From: Bryobacterales bacterium | GTDB taxonomy: Bacteria; Acidobacteriota; Terriglobia; Bryobacterales; UBA6623 | DNA length: 64,000 bases | Direction: 5' to 3' | Assembly: GCA_965216545.1 (NCBI GenBank) | Contig: OZ244172.1 | Location: 1,670,763-1,734,762 of the forward strand | Notes under the pieces: generated by a model | Database searches by the model: none | The model's input: the letters and a program-made list of their open reading frames with translations, nothing else | Told to the model about the DNA's origin: nothing | Made by a program: the position numbers and the translations under genes | Shown: positions 27,171-33,472 of the stretch, piece after piece | Position numbering within the stretch: position 1 is the first letter of the stretch | How the letters are laid out: every line of letters begins with the position of its first letter

Positions 27171-27413
27171 TCAGATTCCCAGCCGGTCGAGCAGATCAGG
27201 CTCGAGCGGTTCCGCCTCGGCCAATTCCTCGCGCAACGCTTTCACCAGCCCCGCCATCTCCCCCCCAAAGCGCTCGCACCAGTCGCAGCCGCGAAGATGC
27301 GCTTCGAGGTTCTCGCGTGCGTCGGCGGCGAGCTCGTTGTCGAGATAGTCGGAGAGCCGCTCGAGCACTTCGAAGCAGAACAAGCCCGCGACTTTTCGTT
27401 GCTGCGGTTTCAT
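27171..27413 (-). CDS. Cytoplasmic zinc-binding (ZAS, RsrA-like) anti-sigma factor
   Basis: Start moved to 'MKPQQ' (ATGA overlap with the sigma stop at 27410-27413). Exact HxxxCxxC motif 'HLRGCDWC' plus an upstream Cys ('LFCFEV'). 80 aa, no TM helix. Confidence 0.7.
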   Translation of the reverse strand: MKPQQRKVAGLFCFEVLERLSDYLDNELAADARENLEAHLRGCDWCERFGGEMAGLVKALREELAEAEPLEPDLLDRLGI

Positions 27414-27979
27414 GAGCGCCTCCCGGCTCGAACGGCGACGGCCAATCGCAAACGCGCCCGATGTAGCCGGCTCTTCATCGCCGCCTGGCTCAGCCCGAGC
27501 ACAACGCACGTACGGTCGCCACGCATACCTTCCAAGTCGCGCAACAGCAGGATCTCACGGTCGTTGGGCCGCAGGGAATCGAGCGCTTGCCTTAGCCGGT
27601 CGCGATCTTCGGCTAACACGGCCAGCGACTCCGGGTCGTCCTCGCCCCAACCGGCGGCGCGGCCCAGAGCCTCTAGATCGCCGATCGGCTGCGGCGCGCG
27701 AGCCCGCCGGCTGTTGAGGCGATACGCCGCGTTCCTCAGGATCGTGAACAACCAGGTTTGGAGGGAAGCCTCGCCGCGGAAGCCGGACAGGGACTCGAGC
27801 GCCGCCACCAGAGCGTCCTGCAGAACGTCCTCGGCGTCTTCGCGGCGAGCGGTCAGAGTCCGAGCGTAACGGAACAGGCTGGGACCGTGACGCTCGGCAA
27901 TCGCGCGAAAGGCCGCGCGATCGCCCCGGCGGGCTCTCTCGACTAGCTCTTCGTCGCCGTGGACTCCCGCAGCGGACAA
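27410..27979 (-). CDS. ECF-type RNA polymerase sigma factor
   Basis: 'ELVERARRGDRAAFRAIAERHGPSLFRYA' (region 2). 'EILLLRDLEGMRGDRTCVVLGLSQAAMKSRLHRARLRL' (region 4). Confidence 0.85.
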   Translation of the reverse strand: MSAAGVHGDEELVERARRGDRAAFRAIAERHGPSLFRYARTLTARREDAEDVLQDALVAALESLSGFRGEASLQTWLFTILRNAAYRLNSRRARAPQPIGDLEALGRAAGWGEDDPESLAVLAEDRDRLRQALDSLRPNDREILLLRDLEGMRGDRTCVVLGLSQAAMKSRLHRARLRLAVAVRAGRRS

Positions 27980-28164
27980 GTGGACACTCCCAACAAGCTG
28001 TACAGCGGACAGCTCCCTAGAATACCCGTCGCCAAGGGAACGACGCCAATCCAGCCCCAGGGCGCCAGCGGCCCCATCGCGGCGCCGCCAATCAGGGCCG
28101 CTCCCGCGAGAACGCGGACCACGCGATCCGCTGCGCCTTCATTCTTCATTCCTAGCTTGGTCAT
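27943..28164 (-). CDS. DUF2892 (YgaP C-terminal-like) small membrane protein
   Basis: Start set at 'MTKLGMKNEG' (GAGGAG 8 nt upstream). 'DRVVRVLAGAALIGGA...GWIGVVPLATGILGSCPLYSLLGVSTCPL' is the DUF2892 pattern as I recall it. Confidence 0.65.
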   Translation of the reverse strand: MTKLGMKNEGAADRVVRVLAGAALIGGAAMGPLAPWGWIGVVPLATGILGSCPLYSLLGVSTCPLRESTATKS

Positions 28165-28264
28165 CTTCGTTTCTCCTCGTTCGCGGCCCATCGCCGCTGT
28201 CTTCACAGGCGTAGAGTCACGAGGCCGCAAAAGGATTCACAGGGCGCGGAAGCTTTTTCGGCGC

Positions 28265-28486
28265 CTATCGACGACCCAACCAGGAGAGCGCCAGGGTGAG
28301 CAGCACGCTGAGCACGATGGAGGTGACGATGGGGAAGTAGACGGTGGTGTTTTTCCCACGCCAGACGACGTCGCCGGGAAGGTTGAACGGGCGGATCCCG
28401 AGCTTGGGGCCGATCAGCACGACTACGCCGAGCAGCGCCAAGCCGAGACCCAGAAAGATCAGAATCTTCCCGAGGTGCATCGGCAT
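28265..28486 (-). CDS. DUF2905 family small membrane protein
   Basis: 'LGKILIFLGLGLALLGVVVLIGPKLG...LPGDVVWRGKNTTVYFPIVTSIVLSVLLTL' matches the DUF2905 pattern. Confidence 0.7.
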   Translation of the reverse strand: MPMHLGKILIFLGLGLALLGVVVLIGPKLGIRPFNLPGDVVWRGKNTTVYFPIVTSIVLSVLLTLALSWLGRR

Positions 28487-28520: not shown

Positions 28521-29852
28521 CTACGCCCTGGGGGCCTCGTAGACGACCTTCTCGGCGCGCGGGTCCCAGAACAGCACCTTGCCCTCGCGGAAGCTCTGCA
28601 CGCCCATCGTGATGACGACTTGGGCGTGATATCCCGTGTTGGCGTCGAGATTGGGCTTCGTCCGGCTCTTGACGCAGTCGAGGAAGTTCTGCATGTGAGC
28701 GTCGACGGGCGTCTCCGCGACCGGGATATCCATCGACCGGTAGCCGAATTTCTTGATGAACTCGTCCTCGTGGATGCGCTCGGCCTTGACGGTGATGTGG
28801 TCCGTCTCGCCCTCGAAGCGCCCGTGGTCGACCATCGTGATCGTCCCCTTCTGTCCGCGGATGAGCCCCGGGATGTGAGTGGAGTTCGCCATTGACGAGC
28901 TGAGCACGAGCGAGTGGCCCTTGGGGAAGTCGGCCAGCAAGTTGAACGTGTCTGGCACTTCGCGATCGGGGAAAGCCCAGATGCCGCCGCTGGAGACGAC
29001 GCGCCGGGGGAACTGCGGCTCGCCCCAGCAGATCTGAAGCGGCGCCACCACGTGATAGAACAGGTCAGTCGCCACGCCGCCCGAGTAGTCCCAGAACTTC
29101 CGGAACCGGAAGTAGCGCTGCGGGTCGAAGTCGCGCTTGCGAGCCGGCCCGAGCCACATGTCCCAGTCAATGTAGTCGACGCCCTTGCCGTCGGGACCCG
29201 CCTCGGGCTCGATGCGCCAACCGCGACCGTTGTTGCGCTCAGGCGTCGAATTCCATTCTCCGGCGAGCGAGTTGCGGTGATAAGAGCCCTGGCTCGAGAT
29301 CAACTTGCCGATCATGCCGTCTTGGATGGCTTTGCGGGCCTTCCACCACTGATCGCGCGATGTCGTCTGCGAGCCGACTTGCAGGACTCGGCCTGTTTCC
29401 TCCACCACGCGGACGACCTGCTTGGCCTCCTCGATGGTGTGGGTCATGGGCTTCTCGAGGTAGACGTCCTTGCCCGCTCTCATCGCCTCGATCGCGATCG
29501 AGGCATGCCAGTGGTCAGGCGTGGCGACGATGACCGCATCGATGTCGTCGCGGCCGATGATCTCGCGATAGTCCAGGGTCGCGAATTCCGCTTTGGAGGT
29601 TTCCTGCGCAAGCCGCTTGCGCTTCTCGTAGACGTCGCAGACTGCCTGAATGTGGACGCCGGAGCCGCCCTCCTCCATGCCCAGCACCAGACGCATCAAG
29701 CTGGAGCCGCGCCCGCCGACGCCGATCATGCCGACTTGCACCGCTTCATTGGCGGTGCGTCGCTGCGGGGTCGCTTCCGCCGCCGAGACGCCAGCCGCGG
29801 AAGCTGCTACACCAAGGAATTGACGCCGATTCCAAACGTTGATCCGAGACAC
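28521..29852 (-). CDS. Tat-exported Gfo/Idh/MocA family oxidoreductase
   Basis: GTG start at 29852 with GGAGGG 10 nt upstream. '[20 protein letters not shown]' Tat signal. '[12 protein letters not shown]' Rossmann. The track ORF's longer N-terminus runs through an intrinsic terminator and was trimmed. Confidence 0.85.
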
Positions 29853-29875
29853 CTTCAGGAAACCCTCCGACGGCG

Positions 29876-29884
29876 ATTCTACCA
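29876..29884 (-). promoter_or_regulatory. Extended -10 element TGgTAGAAT upstream of the Gfo/Idh/MocA gene
   Basis: Minus strand reads ...ggtTGGTAGAATcgccgtcGGAGGGtttcctgaagGTG. Confidence 0.3.
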
Positions 29885-29911
29885 ACCGCGGAGGCCGCAA
29901 TGCCGCGAAGT

Positions 29912-29947
29912 AAAAAAAAATAGGCCGGTTCGACGCCCGAACCGGCC
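29912..29947 (-). terminator. Strong rho-independent terminator (minus strand): 10-bp perfect GC-rich stem, 5-nt loop, T9 run
   Basis: Minus strand reads GGCCGGTTCG-ggcgt-CGAACCGGCC-ta-TTTTTTTTT. Arms at 29923-29932 and 29938-29947. A9 on the plus strand at 29912-29920. Confidence 0.8.
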
Positions 29948-30141
29948 CATCGACAACGCTGAGCTCTGTCCCCCCGGTGAACCCAGCGTGTCGTCCCTGG
30001 TACACGAGAAGTTTGCCACGGGCCGGGAAAATCCCTCAATAGGCCGTTCGGTACAAATTGAGCATGGTACGAAAGTACCTAAGGTACTCTCGTCAATCCG
30101 CCTTGCGGGGGGCCGGGGTTCGGGAAGAGCGGGCCGAGTCT

Positions 30142-30651
30142 CTATTGCCGTCCGCGGCGGTTTTCCAGACGCCGCGGCGCGCCGGCAAGCGGCTGTACGC
30201 TGCCCTTGCCGCAAACCGCCACGCCGTTCTCCCGGAGCGCTGTCAGCAGGTTGTATAGCAACGCGTAAACGACTTGTTCGCTAAGGCTTTGCCGCCCCGG
30301 CAAGCGAAAGCCCGCGGGCAGCTCGGTCGACAGCGCAATGCGCATGCGATTCGAGATCGGTTTGCCGTCTTCGATGCAGTTGGCGACGGTGAGCGGGGTC
30401 TGGAGCACCGCGCCTGTGAGCCCGTCCACATAGAACTGGCAGCGGGAAAACCATCCCAGGTTCGAAGGTTGCGCAGCGTCGAAGAGCAGGAGCGAGTCGC
30501 CCTCGGTGGAGGGGGTCACTTCCAAGATGAGCAGGCGGGAGGTCTCCTCGATGGAGCAGTCGAAGCCAGCCTGCTGCACGAGGTTGCGGATCACGTCGTG
30601 ATCCGGCTCGAGCGCGACGAGCTGCCGGCCTCCAGCCTGCAAGAACCGCAT
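30142..30651 (-). CDS. Hypothetical protein (169 aa), no family recognised; divergent from the HipA-like/DUF3037 pair
   Basis: Unbiased, globular-looking composition (MRFLQAGGRQLVALEPDHDVIRNLVQQAGFDCSIEETSRLLILEV...). The competing ORFs on the other strand and frames are Arg/Ala/Pro-rich. No SD. A -10-like box lies 8 nt upstream. Confidence 0.6.
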   Translation of the reverse strand: MRFLQAGGRQLVALEPDHDVIRNLVQQAGFDCSIEETSRLLILEVTPSTEGDSLLLFDAAQPSNLGWFSRCQFYVDGLTGAVLQTPLTVANCIEDGKPISNRMRIALSTELPAGFRLPGRQSLSEQVVYALLYNLLTALRENGVAVCGKGSVQPLAGAPRRLENRRGRQ

Positions 30652-30659
30652 ATGGGCTG

Positions 30660-30668
30660 ATCATACCA
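30660..30668 (-). promoter_or_regulatory. Extended -10 element TGgTATGAT 8 nt upstream of the ATG at 30651 (suggests a leaderless mRNA)
   Basis: Minus strand reads cgaacggTGGTATGATcagcccatATG. Confidence 0.35.
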
Positions 30669-30744
30669 CCGTTCGGGGCGGGTCATTCCCCCCAGCGGCG
30701 CCGGCGGGCGATGCCGCGGCTGCGCGAGCAGGCGTCCCATTTTG

Positions 30745-30792
30745 GGACTTTCTTGGGCGGGAGCTGGCAGGCGCCTAGAAAGTCCGTATAAT
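30745..30792 (+). promoter_or_regulatory. Promoter of the kinase/DUF3037 operon: CTGGCA-17 nt-TATAAT bracketed by a perfect 9-bp inverted repeat (candidate operator)
   Basis: GGACTTTCT at 30745-30753 and AGAAAGTCC at 30777-30785, with a 23-nt spacer containing the -35-like CTGGCA at 30764-30769. TATAAT at 30787-30792. GGAGG SD at 30830-30834. GTG at 30840. Confidence 0.45.
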
Positions 30793-30839
30793 GGCCGCCT
30801 GACGTCGGCCCAGAGAGCCTGGGGCCGCCGGAGGCTACC

Positions 30840-31718
30840 GTGGCTGTCCTCGCGTGCGAGCACATCAAGAAGATGCGCGGCGGTTCGAGCGCGCACTTGT
30901 TGCTCGCCGAGGATGGCCGCTATTACGTGGTCAAGTTCCGCGACAATCCGCAGCACGCGCGCATCCTCGTCAACGAGCTGATTTGCTATGTACTGTTGGA
31001 CTACCTCGGGCTGCCGACGCCGGAGTGGACGATCGTCGACGTTCCGGACTGGCTCGTCGAGGGCACGCCTGAGATGACGCTCGAGTTTGGCAGAGACTCG
31101 CGACCGTGCATGCCGGGGCTGCACTTCGGCTCACGCTACCCCGTGGATCCGGCGCGGCAGGCGGTCTACGACTACGTGCCGTTGAGCTTGCTGCGCTTGG
31201 TGGTCAACCGCGAAACATTCCTGGGCATGGTCGCTTTCGACAAGTGGGTCTCCAACGCAGACGGACGGCAGGCGATCTTCTTCCGCGCTCGCGCCGGAGA
31301 GTGGCTTTCGCCCGAGCGGCTCGAAGCGGACCCCGAACATGGACCAAGGTCTCTGGTTTACGTCGTCAACATGATCGACCACGGCTTCGCGTTCAATGCG
31401 CAGCATTGGGACTTTTCTGAGAATCCTGAGCAGGGCCTCTATACCAGGCGGGAGGTCTATGACGGCGTTCGGGGATACGACGATTTCGAGCCCTGGCTGA
31501 GCCGCATCCTCAACATGCCGCCGGCTGTGCTCGACGACGCTTTCAAGTACGTGCCGACGCAGTGGTATGAGCGCCAGTGGGATGAGCTCGAGTCGCTGTT
31601 GGAGCGGCTCTATGCGCGCCGGTCCGAGACGCCGGAGCTGATTCGCAAGAGCAAGCTCGCCGCGCGCGATCCGTTTCCTCAATGGCGGCTCGCAGCCGCT
31701 TCGAAGGGGGCGCGGTAG
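30840..31718 (+). CDS. HipA-like (protein-kinase-like fold) kinase family protein
   Basis: Motif order of a HipA/PI3-4K-like kinase. Gly-rich 'KKMRGGSSAHLL' (aa 11-22). 'YYVVKF' Lys (aa 28-33). 'FDKWVSNADGRQAIFF' (aa 133-148), compare HipA 'DGHAKNF'. 'MIDHGFAF' (aa 178-185, DxG Mg-binding-like). GTG start with GGAGG 5 nt upstream. Confidence 0.75.
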   Translation: MAVLACEHIKKMRGGSSAHLLLAEDGRYYVVKFRDNPQHARILVNELICYVLLDYLGLPTPEWTIVDVPDWLVEGTPEMTLEFGRDSRPCMPGLHFGSRYPVDPARQAVYDYVPLSLLRLVVNRETFLGMVAFDKWVSNADGRQAIFFRARAGEWLSPERLEADPEHGPRSLVYVVNMIDHGFAFNAQHWDFSENPEQGLYTRREVYDGVRGYDDFEPWLSRILNMPPAVLDDAFKYVPTQWYERQWDELESLLERLYARRSETPELIRKSKLAARDPFPQWRLAAASKGAR

Positions 31719-32510
31719 ATGGCCGAGCTCAGCCGCTACTACTACCGTTTGCTGCGCTACGTCCCGCGCGCGGAGGCTGGCGAGCTCTACAACGTTGCGG
31801 TGCTCTGCTACGACGAACGAGGGCGCGTCGTCGACGCCCGCTTTACGCCCGATTTCGATCGCATGCGCTGCAACCCGGCCGCCGACCTGGAATTTCTCGG
31901 ACGACTTCGCGGCGAGTTCGAAGACGCCCTGATCCTCGGGGAAGGCTTTACCGAGTACGCCACGGAGCTGACGGACCCAGAGCGGAATGATTTCGACGCG
32001 ACCGAGCCGAAGGTTTTTGGGACGACCGATCTATCCTCATGGATCGTCGACTTCACCGCCCGCAAGTTGGCCACCCAGCCGCCCCTCGAAGACGGGCGGG
32101 CGGAGAGGAGCCGCGGCGTGGGCCGAAGCGCGGTGCGGCATCGCATGAGCGAGACCTTCGCGCAACACGGCCTTTTTCTCAACGGGCACGGTATGCAGCG
32201 TGATGTACACGTCAAGTACGGAGAGCCGGTCGATGAGTTCGTTTTTGACTTCGGCTATGCCAGCCAGACGAAAGAGCAGCACTTTTTGCAGGCGATGGGC
32301 CTGCGGGGCGCCAAGACCGAGGCTCGCAGCTTGATTCTGGTGCTGCAGGAGTGCGGCGGCGTCGGGGAGCTAACCGTCGTAGCCGACGACGCGCTGGGAG
32401 ACGACGTCCGCAACATGCTCAGCGTGCGCGGCGTCGGGGCGGTCAACTTGTCCGCGATCGACACCTACGCCGGCACGATCCGCGAAAAGATGGGGCTGGG
32501 CCCGCGGTAG
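31719..32510 (+). CDS. DUF3037 domain-containing protein
   Basis: ATG directly abuts the kinase stop codon (TAG 31716-31718, ATG 31719-31721). The N-terminus 'YYYRLLRYVPRAEAGELYNVAVLCYDERG' is the DUF3037 signature as I recall it (y.y.lRYvPd..rgEf.NvGvvl). The C-terminal half is unrecognised. Confidence 0.7.
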   Translation: MAELSRYYYRLLRYVPRAEAGELYNVAVLCYDERGRVVDARFTPDFDRMRCNPAADLEFLGRLRGEFEDALILGEGFTEYATELTDPERNDFDATEPKVFGTTDLSSWIVDFTARKLATQPPLEDGRAERSRGVGRSAVRHRMSETFAQHGLFLNGHGMQRDVHVKYGEPVDEFVFDFGYASQTKEQHFLQAMGLRGAKTEARSLILVLQECGGVGELTVVADDALGDDVRNMLSVRGVGAVNLSAIDTYAGTIREKMGLGPR

Positions 32511-32530
32511 GGCATCCCAGGCTAAGGCGC

Positions 32531-32588
32531 GACGTTGCGGTGGCGCTCGACCTCCCGAACTCCCGAGGTGGAGACCACGGTCAACGTC
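32531..32588. terminator. Long imperfect hairpin between the convergent DUF3037 and sugar-isomerase genes
   Basis: GACGTTGCGGTGG (32531-32543) pairs with CCACGGTCAACGTC (32575-32588), with an inner CCTC...GAGG pairing. No U-tract. Confidence 0.4.
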
Positions 32589-32605
32589 GCCCTCACGTTG
32601 GGCGA

Positions 32606-33472
32606 CTATCCAAACAGCTCGCGGAAGGCTGGAAACGAGTTGCGGAAGCCATCCTCGAACGTGCCGTCGTCGGGCCGGTACACGCTCTCGAACGAGACGA
32701 CACCGGAGTAGCCGTCACGCTCGAGCGCGGCGGCTACCTCGCGGTAGTACGCGATCATCTCGCCTTCGCCGAAGCGGCGCTGATCGACCGTCGCCTTGGG
32801 GATGTCGACGGTCAAGTCCTTTACGTGCAGATGGCCGAGGAAGCCGCCTCGCAAAGCCGCGTAGCCGTCCGGGTAGGCGGGCTCGTTGCAGAACAGGCTG
32901 TTGCCGGGGTCCCACAGGATCTTCAGCCGGTCACTGCCCATCTCCTCGACGAGCTTACGCCCGAGCCAGGCGGAGTTGATGATGGCGTTGTTGCCGGTCT
33001 CGACAACCAGCGTGACGTCTCGGTCTTCGGCAAGCTGCACGGCCGGCGCGAGCAGCGCCCGGAGCTTCTCCCACGCGCCTCGAGAGACGACCCAGTGCTC
33101 GGAGCCGTTCGAGCCGAACAAGATCATCTCCTTGCGGAAGCTCATGATGCGCACCAAGCCACACTCGAGGGCCTTAGCGGTGTCGATGCAGCGGCCGAGC
33201 GCATCCATATGCCGCGAGTGGTTGGCGTCGCCCGCCTCGGTTTCGCCAACGAGCATGCCGACGAAGTTGTGTCGCGAGATGCAACAGACCTGCATGCCGC
33301 GCCGTTGAACGAGGTCCTGGACGCGGCCAATCTCGGCGTCGTCGAGGTCGCCGACTTCCTTGTCCCACAGAAACTGCAGCTCAGCCTGGCGCAGGCCATG
33401 CTCGCTCATCACGTCGAGCGCGTGCTCGAGCTCGCGGCTGATGCCGTCGGTGATGACTCCTAACTCCGCCAT
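32606..33472 (-). CDS. Sugar phosphate isomerase/epimerase (xylose isomerase-like TIM barrel) family protein
   Basis: 288 aa with alternating beta/alpha pattern. 'LVVETGNNAI' and 'HLHVKD' metal-ligand blocks typical of the AP endonuclease 2 / xylose isomerase-like TIM family. Confidence 0.8.
   Translation of the reverse strand: MAELGVITDGISRELEHALDVMSEHGLRQAELQFLWDKEVGDLDDAEIGRVQDLVQRRGMQVCCISRHNFVGMLVGETEAGDANHSRHMDALGRCIDTAKALECGLVRIMSFRKEMILFGSNGSEHWVVSRGAWEKLRALLAPAVQLAEDRDVTLVVETGNNAIINSAWLGRKLVEEMGSDRLKILWDPGNSLFCNEPAYPDGYAALRGGFLGHLHVKDLTVDIPKATVDQRRFGEGEMIAYYREVAAALERDGYSGVVSFESVYRPDDGTFEDGFRNSFPAFRELFG

Follow-up and report, generated by a model that had tools for sequence, protein, structure and literature searches.

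A HipA_2 kinase and its DUF3037 partner in a Bryobacterales genome: a remote relative of HipAD in a housekeeping context

What is a gene pair that encodes a HipA-like kinase and a DUF3037 protein doing among the metabolic genes of a Bryobacterales bacterium? The question was raised by an earlier note, made from the letters alone, on a 64,000-nucleotide stretch of contig OZ244172.1 (positions 1,670,763–1,734,762, assembly GCA_965216545.1; hereafter the window, whose numbering we use throughout), which had proposed an uncharacterised, possibly three-gene, kinase-based toxin or conflict system. The cassette consists of two abutting open reading frames (ORFs) on the + strand, found exactly where that note had put them. 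Gene 1 (30840–31718; 292 aa, GTG start) encodes a protein-kinase-like member of the HipA_2 family, and gene 2 (31719–32510; 263 aa, ATG start) encodes a DUF3037 (HipD-like) partner. The TAG of the former (31716–31718) directly touches the ATG of the latter (31719–31721), and the DUF3037 gene thus does occupy the coupled position. Its sequence marks the cassette as a true and intact, if remote, member of the HipA_2/DUF3037 family, which goes by the names HipAD, DS-6 and PADLOC PDC-M66. By analogy with the homologues that have been studied, we favour, with a little more confidence than doubt, its being a toxin-antitoxin or abortive-infection module of the HipAD type.

The assignment of gene 1 as a HipA-like kinase was borne out by a profile search, in which it matched positions 6–122 of the 240 in HipA_2 (PF20613), and only these, scoring 49.3 bits where 27 are needed (E 5e-13). 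HipA_C stayed under its cut-off (16.2 against 30.5 bits), an NCBIfam search of the cassette proteins gave nothing significant, and a PDB sequence search with both of them gave nothing useful. The PADLOC model PDC-M66A matched residues 26–143 of the kinase only (E 7e-8). There are 4412 kinase homologues at E ≤ 1e-3, the best being 86% identical; PF20613 is present in all 120 homologues listed, and the named ones come from metagenome-assembled genomes (MAGs) of Acidobacteria or Bryobacterales. Across 37 homologues, down to 49% identity, 41 columns are invariant, and these include K32, N36/Q38/H39, N45/E46, D134, K135, N139, R143, Q144 and D180/H181. An AlphaFold2 model of the kinase (predicted local distance difference test score, pLDDT, 89.7; predicted template-modelling score, pTM, 0.88) matched the folds of PI4KIIalpha, Fam20C, Helicobacter pylori CtkA, HipA and a bacterial Ser/Thr kinase (E 3e-6 to 5e-3, template-modelling (TM) score ~0.45–0.54).

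All of the peptide motifs quoted for the two proteins in the earlier note (KKMRGGSSAHLL, YYVVKF, FDKWVSNADGRQAIFF, MIDHGFAF and YYYRLLRYVPRAEAGELYNVAVLCYDERG) are present. Its observation that the catalytic loop keeps the Asp-Gly and replaces the His and Asn likewise held on alignment (DGRQAI against DGHAKN); comparing the whole loop FDKWVSNADGRQAIF with FQWLIGATDGHAKNF of E. coli HipA, the Asp is kept and the His, Lys and Asn are not. The key residues of gene 1 are K32 (30933–30935), N45/E46, D141 (31260–31262) and D180 of a DHG motif (31377–31379). The choice of D141 and D180 as the HipA catalytic and metal aspartates was right, since D139 and D164 of DS-6A, the kinase of the E. coli DS-6 system, align with them: ILNAD139RT with VSNAD141GRQ in the window, and LIDHN with MIDHG. 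We had considered D134-x4-N139 as an alternative catalytic Asp/Asn pair and dropped it because the DS-6A mutation D139A maps to D141. In the kinase model D141 lies just past a helix ending at residue 137, and from the aligned motifs we take it as the likely equivalent of HipA D309.

Gene 2 matched DUF3037 (PF11236) above threshold, as had been claimed (30.6 bits against 22.6, residues 9–72), and PDC-M66B of PADLOC over residues 5–49 only (E 6e-6). The partner is much rarer in sequence space than the kinase: a word-index search gave 22 matches, and an exhaustive phmmer search of 1.84 billion representatives gave 63 clusters, 12 of them at E ≤ 1e-30. Its AlphaFold2 model (pLDDT 89.1) has two domains, residues 1–117 and 136–263, joined by a disordered linker; as features of the window these are an N-domain of residues 1–120 (31719–32078), a linker of residues 125–131 and a C-domain of residues 134–263 (32118–32507).

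The best PDB matches to the partner's fold were VC1899, Cdn1, Card1 and Can2, followed by NucS/EndoMS and Exo5. The best matches in BFVD were two full-length phage proteins, with T7 endonuclease I, restriction endonucleases, a DUF1828 protein, Cas4 and Vsr-like proteins also found. The PD-(D/E)xK fold is common to these nucleases. The matches of one partner domain to them (Foldseek E 7e-5 to 1e-2, TM score only ~0.35, 7–14% identity) suggest, at the level of the fold only, that this domain belongs to the restriction-endonuclease class, and the order of secondary-structure elements in the model (alpha-beta-beta-beta-alpha-beta) suggests that it is the C-domain. No conserved D...(D/E)xK motif was found in the partner alignment, and none in the third strand of the C-domain, whose invariant residues are R136, D177, Y180, A192, L218 and L234. 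As the (D/E)xK motif is not conserved, we read the modelled domain as non-catalytic and possibly DNA-binding. The partner may thus resemble PD-(D/E)xK nucleases of the Card1/Can2/VC1899 type in the fold of one domain, but differs from them in that their catalytic motif is not conserved and no CARF domain was identified in it.

The description of the pair as uncharacterised is outdated. In a study of the Retron-Sda1 operon, DUF3037 showed a strong association with HipA-like kinases, and the pair was recognised as PDC-M66; deletion of the kinase abolished defence against phage Bas51, deletion of DUF3037 was toxic, and the retron parts were dispensable (PMC12548924). DefensePredictor led to the validation of E. 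coli DS-6, renamed HipAD (DeWeirdt et al, Science 2026; PMC13092281), which according to the citation there had been found independently in prophages (Brenes and Laub 2025). The catalytic mutant D139A of DS-6A lost defence (PMC13092281 and the supplement of the Science paper), and AlphaFold3 predicted both a DS-6A–DS-6B complex and DNA binding by DS-6B (PMC13092281). In GenBank, the pair is annotated as "HipA toxin" and "HipD antitoxin", beside cI, in Escherichia phage PhiR5_1 (PV340545.1). The proposal of the earlier note that a kinase toxin is paired with a DUF3037 antitoxin or sensor, in the style of abortive infection, is in line with what these experiments on homologues showed (PMC13092281, PMC12548924).

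How close is the window's cassette to HipAD? Its family of 37 kinase homologues aligned with DS-6A by hhalign over 209 columns at 26% identity (probability 98.3%, E 1e-14). DS-6A is itself a full-length member of HipA_2 (258 bits) and matches PDC-M66A at positions 11–174 of 270; DS-6B matches PDC-M66B end to end. A single DS-6B sequence aligned with the window's partner over the N-domain only, and a profile of 32 HipD-family members aligned with the partner family over 241 columns (6–264 against 3–269; probability 97.8%, E 7e-13), from which it follows that HipD and the partner have the full two-domain architecture in common. As in DS-6 and PhiR5_1, the kinase gene is followed on the same strand by a DUF3037 gene (of ~270 aa in those systems) with touching or overlapping stop and start codons; there is no HipB-type helix-turn-helix (HTH) partner; and the catalytic Asp (DS-6A D139, D141 in the window) and the Asp of the DHx motif are shared. 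The differences from DS-6A lie in the window kinase being 43 aa longer, with an insertion at approximately residues 150–170 and a long C-terminal helix, and in its match to the Pfam and PADLOC profiles being limited to their N-terminal half. The C-domain of the window's partner, unlike that of HipAD, is undetected by Pfam or PADLOC. The settings differ too: DS-6 comes from Enterobacteria and sits in the prophage immunity region of lambdoid prophages, whereas the window's host is an acidobacterium and its cassette lies among chromosomal housekeeping genes.

Both window proteins match the two PDC-M66 models and have the same gene order. The module of Retron-Sda1 is, from its description, likewise a two-gene kinase and DUF3037 unit that works on its own (PMC12548924); by contrast with that operon, no reverse transcriptase, non-coding RNA or HTH gene adjoins the window's cassette. 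The likeness to classical HipBA and HipBST is one of fold and organisation. The kinase model shares a protein-kinase-like fold with the HipA/CtkA/PI4KII group (HipA structures are matched by Foldseek at E 6e-4 to 5e-3), with aspartates equivalent to HipA D309 and D332, and, by analogy, a putative toxin would stand beside a protein that neutralises it. However, there is essentially no sequence similarity between E. coli HipA and the window kinase (hhalign probability 10.8%, 26 columns), which has no N-terminal HipA subdomain, and the gene order is reversed, with a putative antitoxin that is downstream and not of the HTH type. The absence of an HTH partner of the HipB kind, also remarked on earlier, held up: no HTH protein adjoins the cassette, and the sole upstream ORF is divergent, has no Pfam match and is not conserved with the pair.

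We then asked how regularly the two genes occur together. Relatives are encoded at no fewer than 548 loci in species-representative genomes, and the best 80 of these loci are all from Acidobacteriota, mostly Bryobacterales. ORFs were called in these loci and searched with hidden Markov models (HMMs) built from the cassette alignments, the partner being looked for within 5 kb. A neighbor-joining tree of the kinases cleanly separates a paired clade, in which the window's kinase is sister to that of locus L001, from a solo clade. The 22 paired-clade loci in other genomes, whose kinases are 52–66% identical to the window's, all have a DUF3037 gene directly downstream (22/22), and so do the closer metagenomic relatives (L001, L002 and L084–L091). 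The adjacency is therefore recurrent. Median pairwise identity across the 23 paired loci is 62% for the kinases and 42% for the partners, with the kinase the more conserved in 252 of 253 pairs; the faster evolution of the partner agrees with its being an antitoxin or sensor on which selection is relaxed or diversifying. A 555-aa fusion of kinase and DUF3037 (P0143) that might have served as Rosetta-stone evidence was rejected as an assembly artefact. It arises from the loss of one G from a G7 run just ahead of the stop codon (L090:5860–5880 and L091:3089–3109, compared with L084 and L085), it is seen in two MAG proteins that NCBI lists as "HipA family kinase" (555 aa, MEZ5362490.1), and the gene for elongation factor G (EF-G) is split into six ORFs in the assembly that bears it. 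Given the missing G and the shattered EF-G gene, the fusion is probably a homopolymer error of assembly or sequencing.

The solo clade comprises 60 loci (L023–L083, e.g., L025:5001–5834) from Bryobacteraceae, Solibacteraceae and others, with kinases 46–52% identical to the window's and no DUF3037 gene within 5 kb. Widening the HMM to take in DS-6B and switching the filters off brought up no DUF3037 in these 60 loci, and a tblastn search for relics found no remnant of one. Their kinases retain K32, N45/E46, D141 and D180 in 60/60 cases, and none (0/60) has Asn at the D141 position. A more distant partner-less HipA_2-like context was seen on plasmid pB of Peribacillus sp. R9-11 (NZ_CP133765.1, L093:2477–3253), where a gene annotated "HipA family kinase" (26% identity to the window's kinase over 89% of its length) and the stop of a family-4 glycosyltransferase gene overlap by 4 bp; the kinase gene belongs to a dTDP-rhamnose/O-antigen cluster, and no DUF3037 gene is close by.

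Where the kinase probably resided before is suggested by its neighbours in other genomes. An SLT/LysM gene lies upstream of it in 46/60 solo loci and 6/22 paired genome loci, usually preceded by an EF-G-like gene, and context clustering places L013, too, in the SLT/LysM group of paired loci. Close metagenomic relatives (77–79% identity) have the same order of EF-G-like gene, SLT/LysM gene and kinase gene. The order is that of a 694-aa EF-G-like GTPase, a large lytic transglycosylase with SLT and multiple LysM domains, and the HipA_2 kinase in L001:2716–7877, L084:1–4268 and L088:868–5871. This neighbourhood is likely the ancestral location of the kinase. The paired loci as a whole occur in at least seven different contexts, and that of the window is unique. 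DNA homology with the orthologous loci starts ~105 nt upstream of the start codon, at a conserved block, GTCCCATTTTGGGAC (30734–30748, + strand), which forms a small hairpin-like element flagged by a scan for terminator-like features; this block is the 5' limit of the homology, and in the orthologues it comes just past the stop codon of the upstream SLT/LysM gene. As the homologous DNA takes in this block, GAAA(A/G)(C/T)CCGTATAATG and CGCCTGA, and thus covers the promoter elements, the cassette moved together with its promoter. The Bryobacterales branch otherwise looks largely vertically inherited, among housekeeping genes.

The promoter itself, claimed earlier on the strength of its TATAAT, is a sigma-70-like site, CTGGCA-17-TATAAT (30764–30792, + strand; −10 hexamer at 30787–30792; 10/12 matches). 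It was the sole such site in a promoter scan of 30000–32800, where 0.3 would be expected, and the TATAAT with its flanking CCG...G is invariant in 6/6 orthologous upstream regions. A Shine-Dalgarno sequence, GGAGG (30830–30834, + strand), stands 5 nt ahead of the kinase GTG, and the window, L001 and L086 all have GGAGGC at this place in the alignment. The operator-like inverted repeat described at the promoter stood only in part. In the window there is a real, if imperfect, long dyad (arms 30729–30756 and 30774–30801, 28 nt each, 75% complementary) that spans the −35 and −10 and has a fold z-score of −3.45, with 0/200 shuffles folding equally well. Orthologous promoters lack it, folding no better than shuffles (z −1.0 to +0.8); the long dyad is specific to the window's copy, and its absence from the orthologues leaves a conserved operator unsupported. 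A short dyad between the −35 and −10, GTTT(T/C)C...G(A/G)AAAC, was seen in several orthologues when their sequences were read by eye.

The claim of hairpins at both outer ends of the cassette was partly confirmed. At the 3' end, the structured intergenic region (32511–32606) contains a hairpin, GTCGCCC-N7-GGGCGAC (32586–32606), and the segment 32505–32612 folds better than shuffles (z −2.67; 2/200 shuffles as good), but it has no T-run and is shared with a convergent gene for a xylose-isomerase-like protein. It may serve as a terminator.

The third gene allowed for by the earlier note would have been a divergent ORF of 169 aa (30142–30651, − strand), which has a coding-like GC content at third codon positions (GC3) of 0.82. 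It has no Pfam, NCBIfam or PADLOC match and is found beside no other copy of the cassette, its one partial match (27 aa, 67% identity) lying at the edge of L041. We rejected it as a component on these grounds; as it accompanies no other copy, the system is one of two genes. The cassette's own GC3 is 0.82, compared with 0.85–0.865 for neighbouring genes, in agreement with the native-looking composition remarked on before, and the flanking genes were confirmed to be metabolic. The window has no tRNA gene and no Rfam match. Further out, a Gfo/Idh/MocA ORF on the − strand, called to 29852, has a possible longer form that starts from an upstream GTG at 30005 (28521–30005, 494 aa), the shorter call beginning nearer to a predicted signal or TAT-like N-terminus. 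Judged from the translations, an ORF like a sigma factor of the extracytoplasmic function type (27410–27979, − strand) overlaps a putative zinc-finger anti-sigma ORF (27171–27509), and two small membrane-protein ORFs (27943–28486) come after them; all of these are unrelated to the cassette.

Our favoured reading of the cassette, that of a HipAD-type module, starts from what the present analysis shows: how the genes are arranged, the families and folds to which their products belong, catalytic residues that are intact, an adjacency that recurs and a partner that evolves faster. One promoter would drive the translationally coupled pair. The kinase, with K32, D141 and D180 in a fold of the PI4KII/CtkA/HipA group, would be a growth-arresting effector, neutralised through binding by the DUF3037 protein; for its toxicity, for this neutralisation and for phage defence we rely on the homologues. 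Beyond these, we infer that the partner may bind promoter DNA and so autoregulate the pair, that a trigger such as phage infection or stress would release the kinase, and that the freed kinase would phosphorylate an essential host target, the outcome being an aborted infection or growth arrest.

A number of observations weigh against this. The kinase is only ~26% identical to that of HipAD and the partner 12% in the profile alignment, and the kinase loop, DGRQAI where HipA has DGHAKN, is without the His, Lys and Asn of HipA. Asn replaces D141 in 14/23 paired kinases, in several sub-branches, although the window's kinase has Asp; a D-to-N change at the residue critical in DS-6A sits awkwardly with a simple lethal toxin-antitoxin picture. 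That a clade of solo kinases stays intact is not easily squared with a kinase that is obligatorily toxic. No relatives were found in IMG/VR, and out to ~10 kb the surroundings of the cassette are free of defence, prophage and mobile-element genes; its flanks are metabolic or housekeeping genes rather than the prophage, mobile element or defence island typical of HipAD. With its closest relatives in conserved synteny with EF-G-like and SLT/LysM genes, the genomic context in this lineage argues against a typical mobile defence or conflict island.

Much of this would be explained if the pair were domesticated, the kinase being a vertically inherited chromosomal regulator with a physiological target and DUF3037 no antitoxin but a modulator, sensor or adaptor that can be dispensed with, an explanation that we regard as the main rival, possible though rather unlikely. 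It accounts for a strongly conserved kinase with at least 548 loci, the best 80 of them confined to Acidobacteriota and mostly to Bryobacterales; for the EF-G-like/SLT/LysM/kinase synteny in both clades and several paired sub-branches; for a context free of mobile or defence genes; and for the K32, N45/E46, D141 and D180 kept by 60/60 solo kinases with no DUF3037 nearby, solo HipA_2 kinases being found elsewhere too, as on the Peribacillus plasmid, coupled to a glycosyltransferase gene. Yet every homologous pair tested so far acts as a toxin-antitoxin defence system (PMC12548924, PMC13092281), the partner of the solo kinases could be encoded elsewhere in their genomes, the evolution of the partner far outpaces that of the kinase, in the manner of antitoxins and sensors, and the movement of the cassette with its own promoter into at least seven contexts fits a semi-autonomous module. 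Only tentatively, and with considerable doubt, do we suggest that the HipA_2 kinase of Bryobacterales has resided in the chromosome since ancient times, passed on vertically next to an EF-G paralogue and a lytic transglycosylase, and is not a mobile toxin; on this view one large clade would have maintained a catalytically intact kinase over a long period with no DUF3037 partner. Translation factors or tRNA synthetases are the classical targets of HipA-family kinases, which makes the EF-G paralogue a conceivable substrate, though this is pure speculation.

The same two-gene architecture and HipA-related fold would also suit a plain chromosomal toxin-antitoxin pair with no role in phage defence, in which the kinase induces dormancy under stress, for addiction or persistence, like classical HipBA. 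A chromosomal location outside any island agrees with this, and the promoter dyad of the window is compatible with autoregulation, but the long dyad is unconserved in orthologues and the solo clade argues against strong toxicity. We know of no persistence data for any HipA_2/DUF3037 pair. The tested homologues, moreover, came to light through phage-defence phenotypes (PMC12548924, PMC13092281), and overall we find this explanation improbable. That the pair is a decaying remnant, a pseudokinase and its companion with no current function, seems very improbable indeed. The catalytic loop without the HipA His, Lys and Asn and the frequency of D141N in paired relatives might be read in that way, but both ORFs are intact and coding-like (GC3 0.82), the promoter and Shine-Dalgarno sequence are conserved, the window's kinase itself keeps D141, and 41 columns, including K32, D134, N139, R143, Q144 and D180, are invariant in the 37 homologues down to 49% identity.

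The pairing of HipA_2 and DUF3037 already has a catalogue entry (PDC-M66) and a name (HipAD), and its defence of E. coli against phage has been shown, so the cassette is not a new conflict system. New here are this branch, confined to Bryobacterales, its housekeeping context, the relocation with the promoter, the sister clade of 60 solo loci and the D141N substitution in 14/23 paired kinases. They extend HipAD to Acidobacteriota, at the limit of sequence detectability, with a partner that, according to its model, keeps the two-domain architecture and a nuclease-like fold. If the kinase is indeed a resident of these genomes, DUF3037/HipD would be a fast-evolving sensor or modulator and not an obligatory antitoxin, and HipA_2 would have a housekeeping role with a physiological substrate that was later exploited by defence systems, or the reverse. 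The paired and partner-less clades, together with the variation between Asp and Asn at the critical position, amount to a natural experiment, and their comparison within Bryobacterales could reveal if toxicity is intrinsic to the kinase and what part DUF3037 plays.

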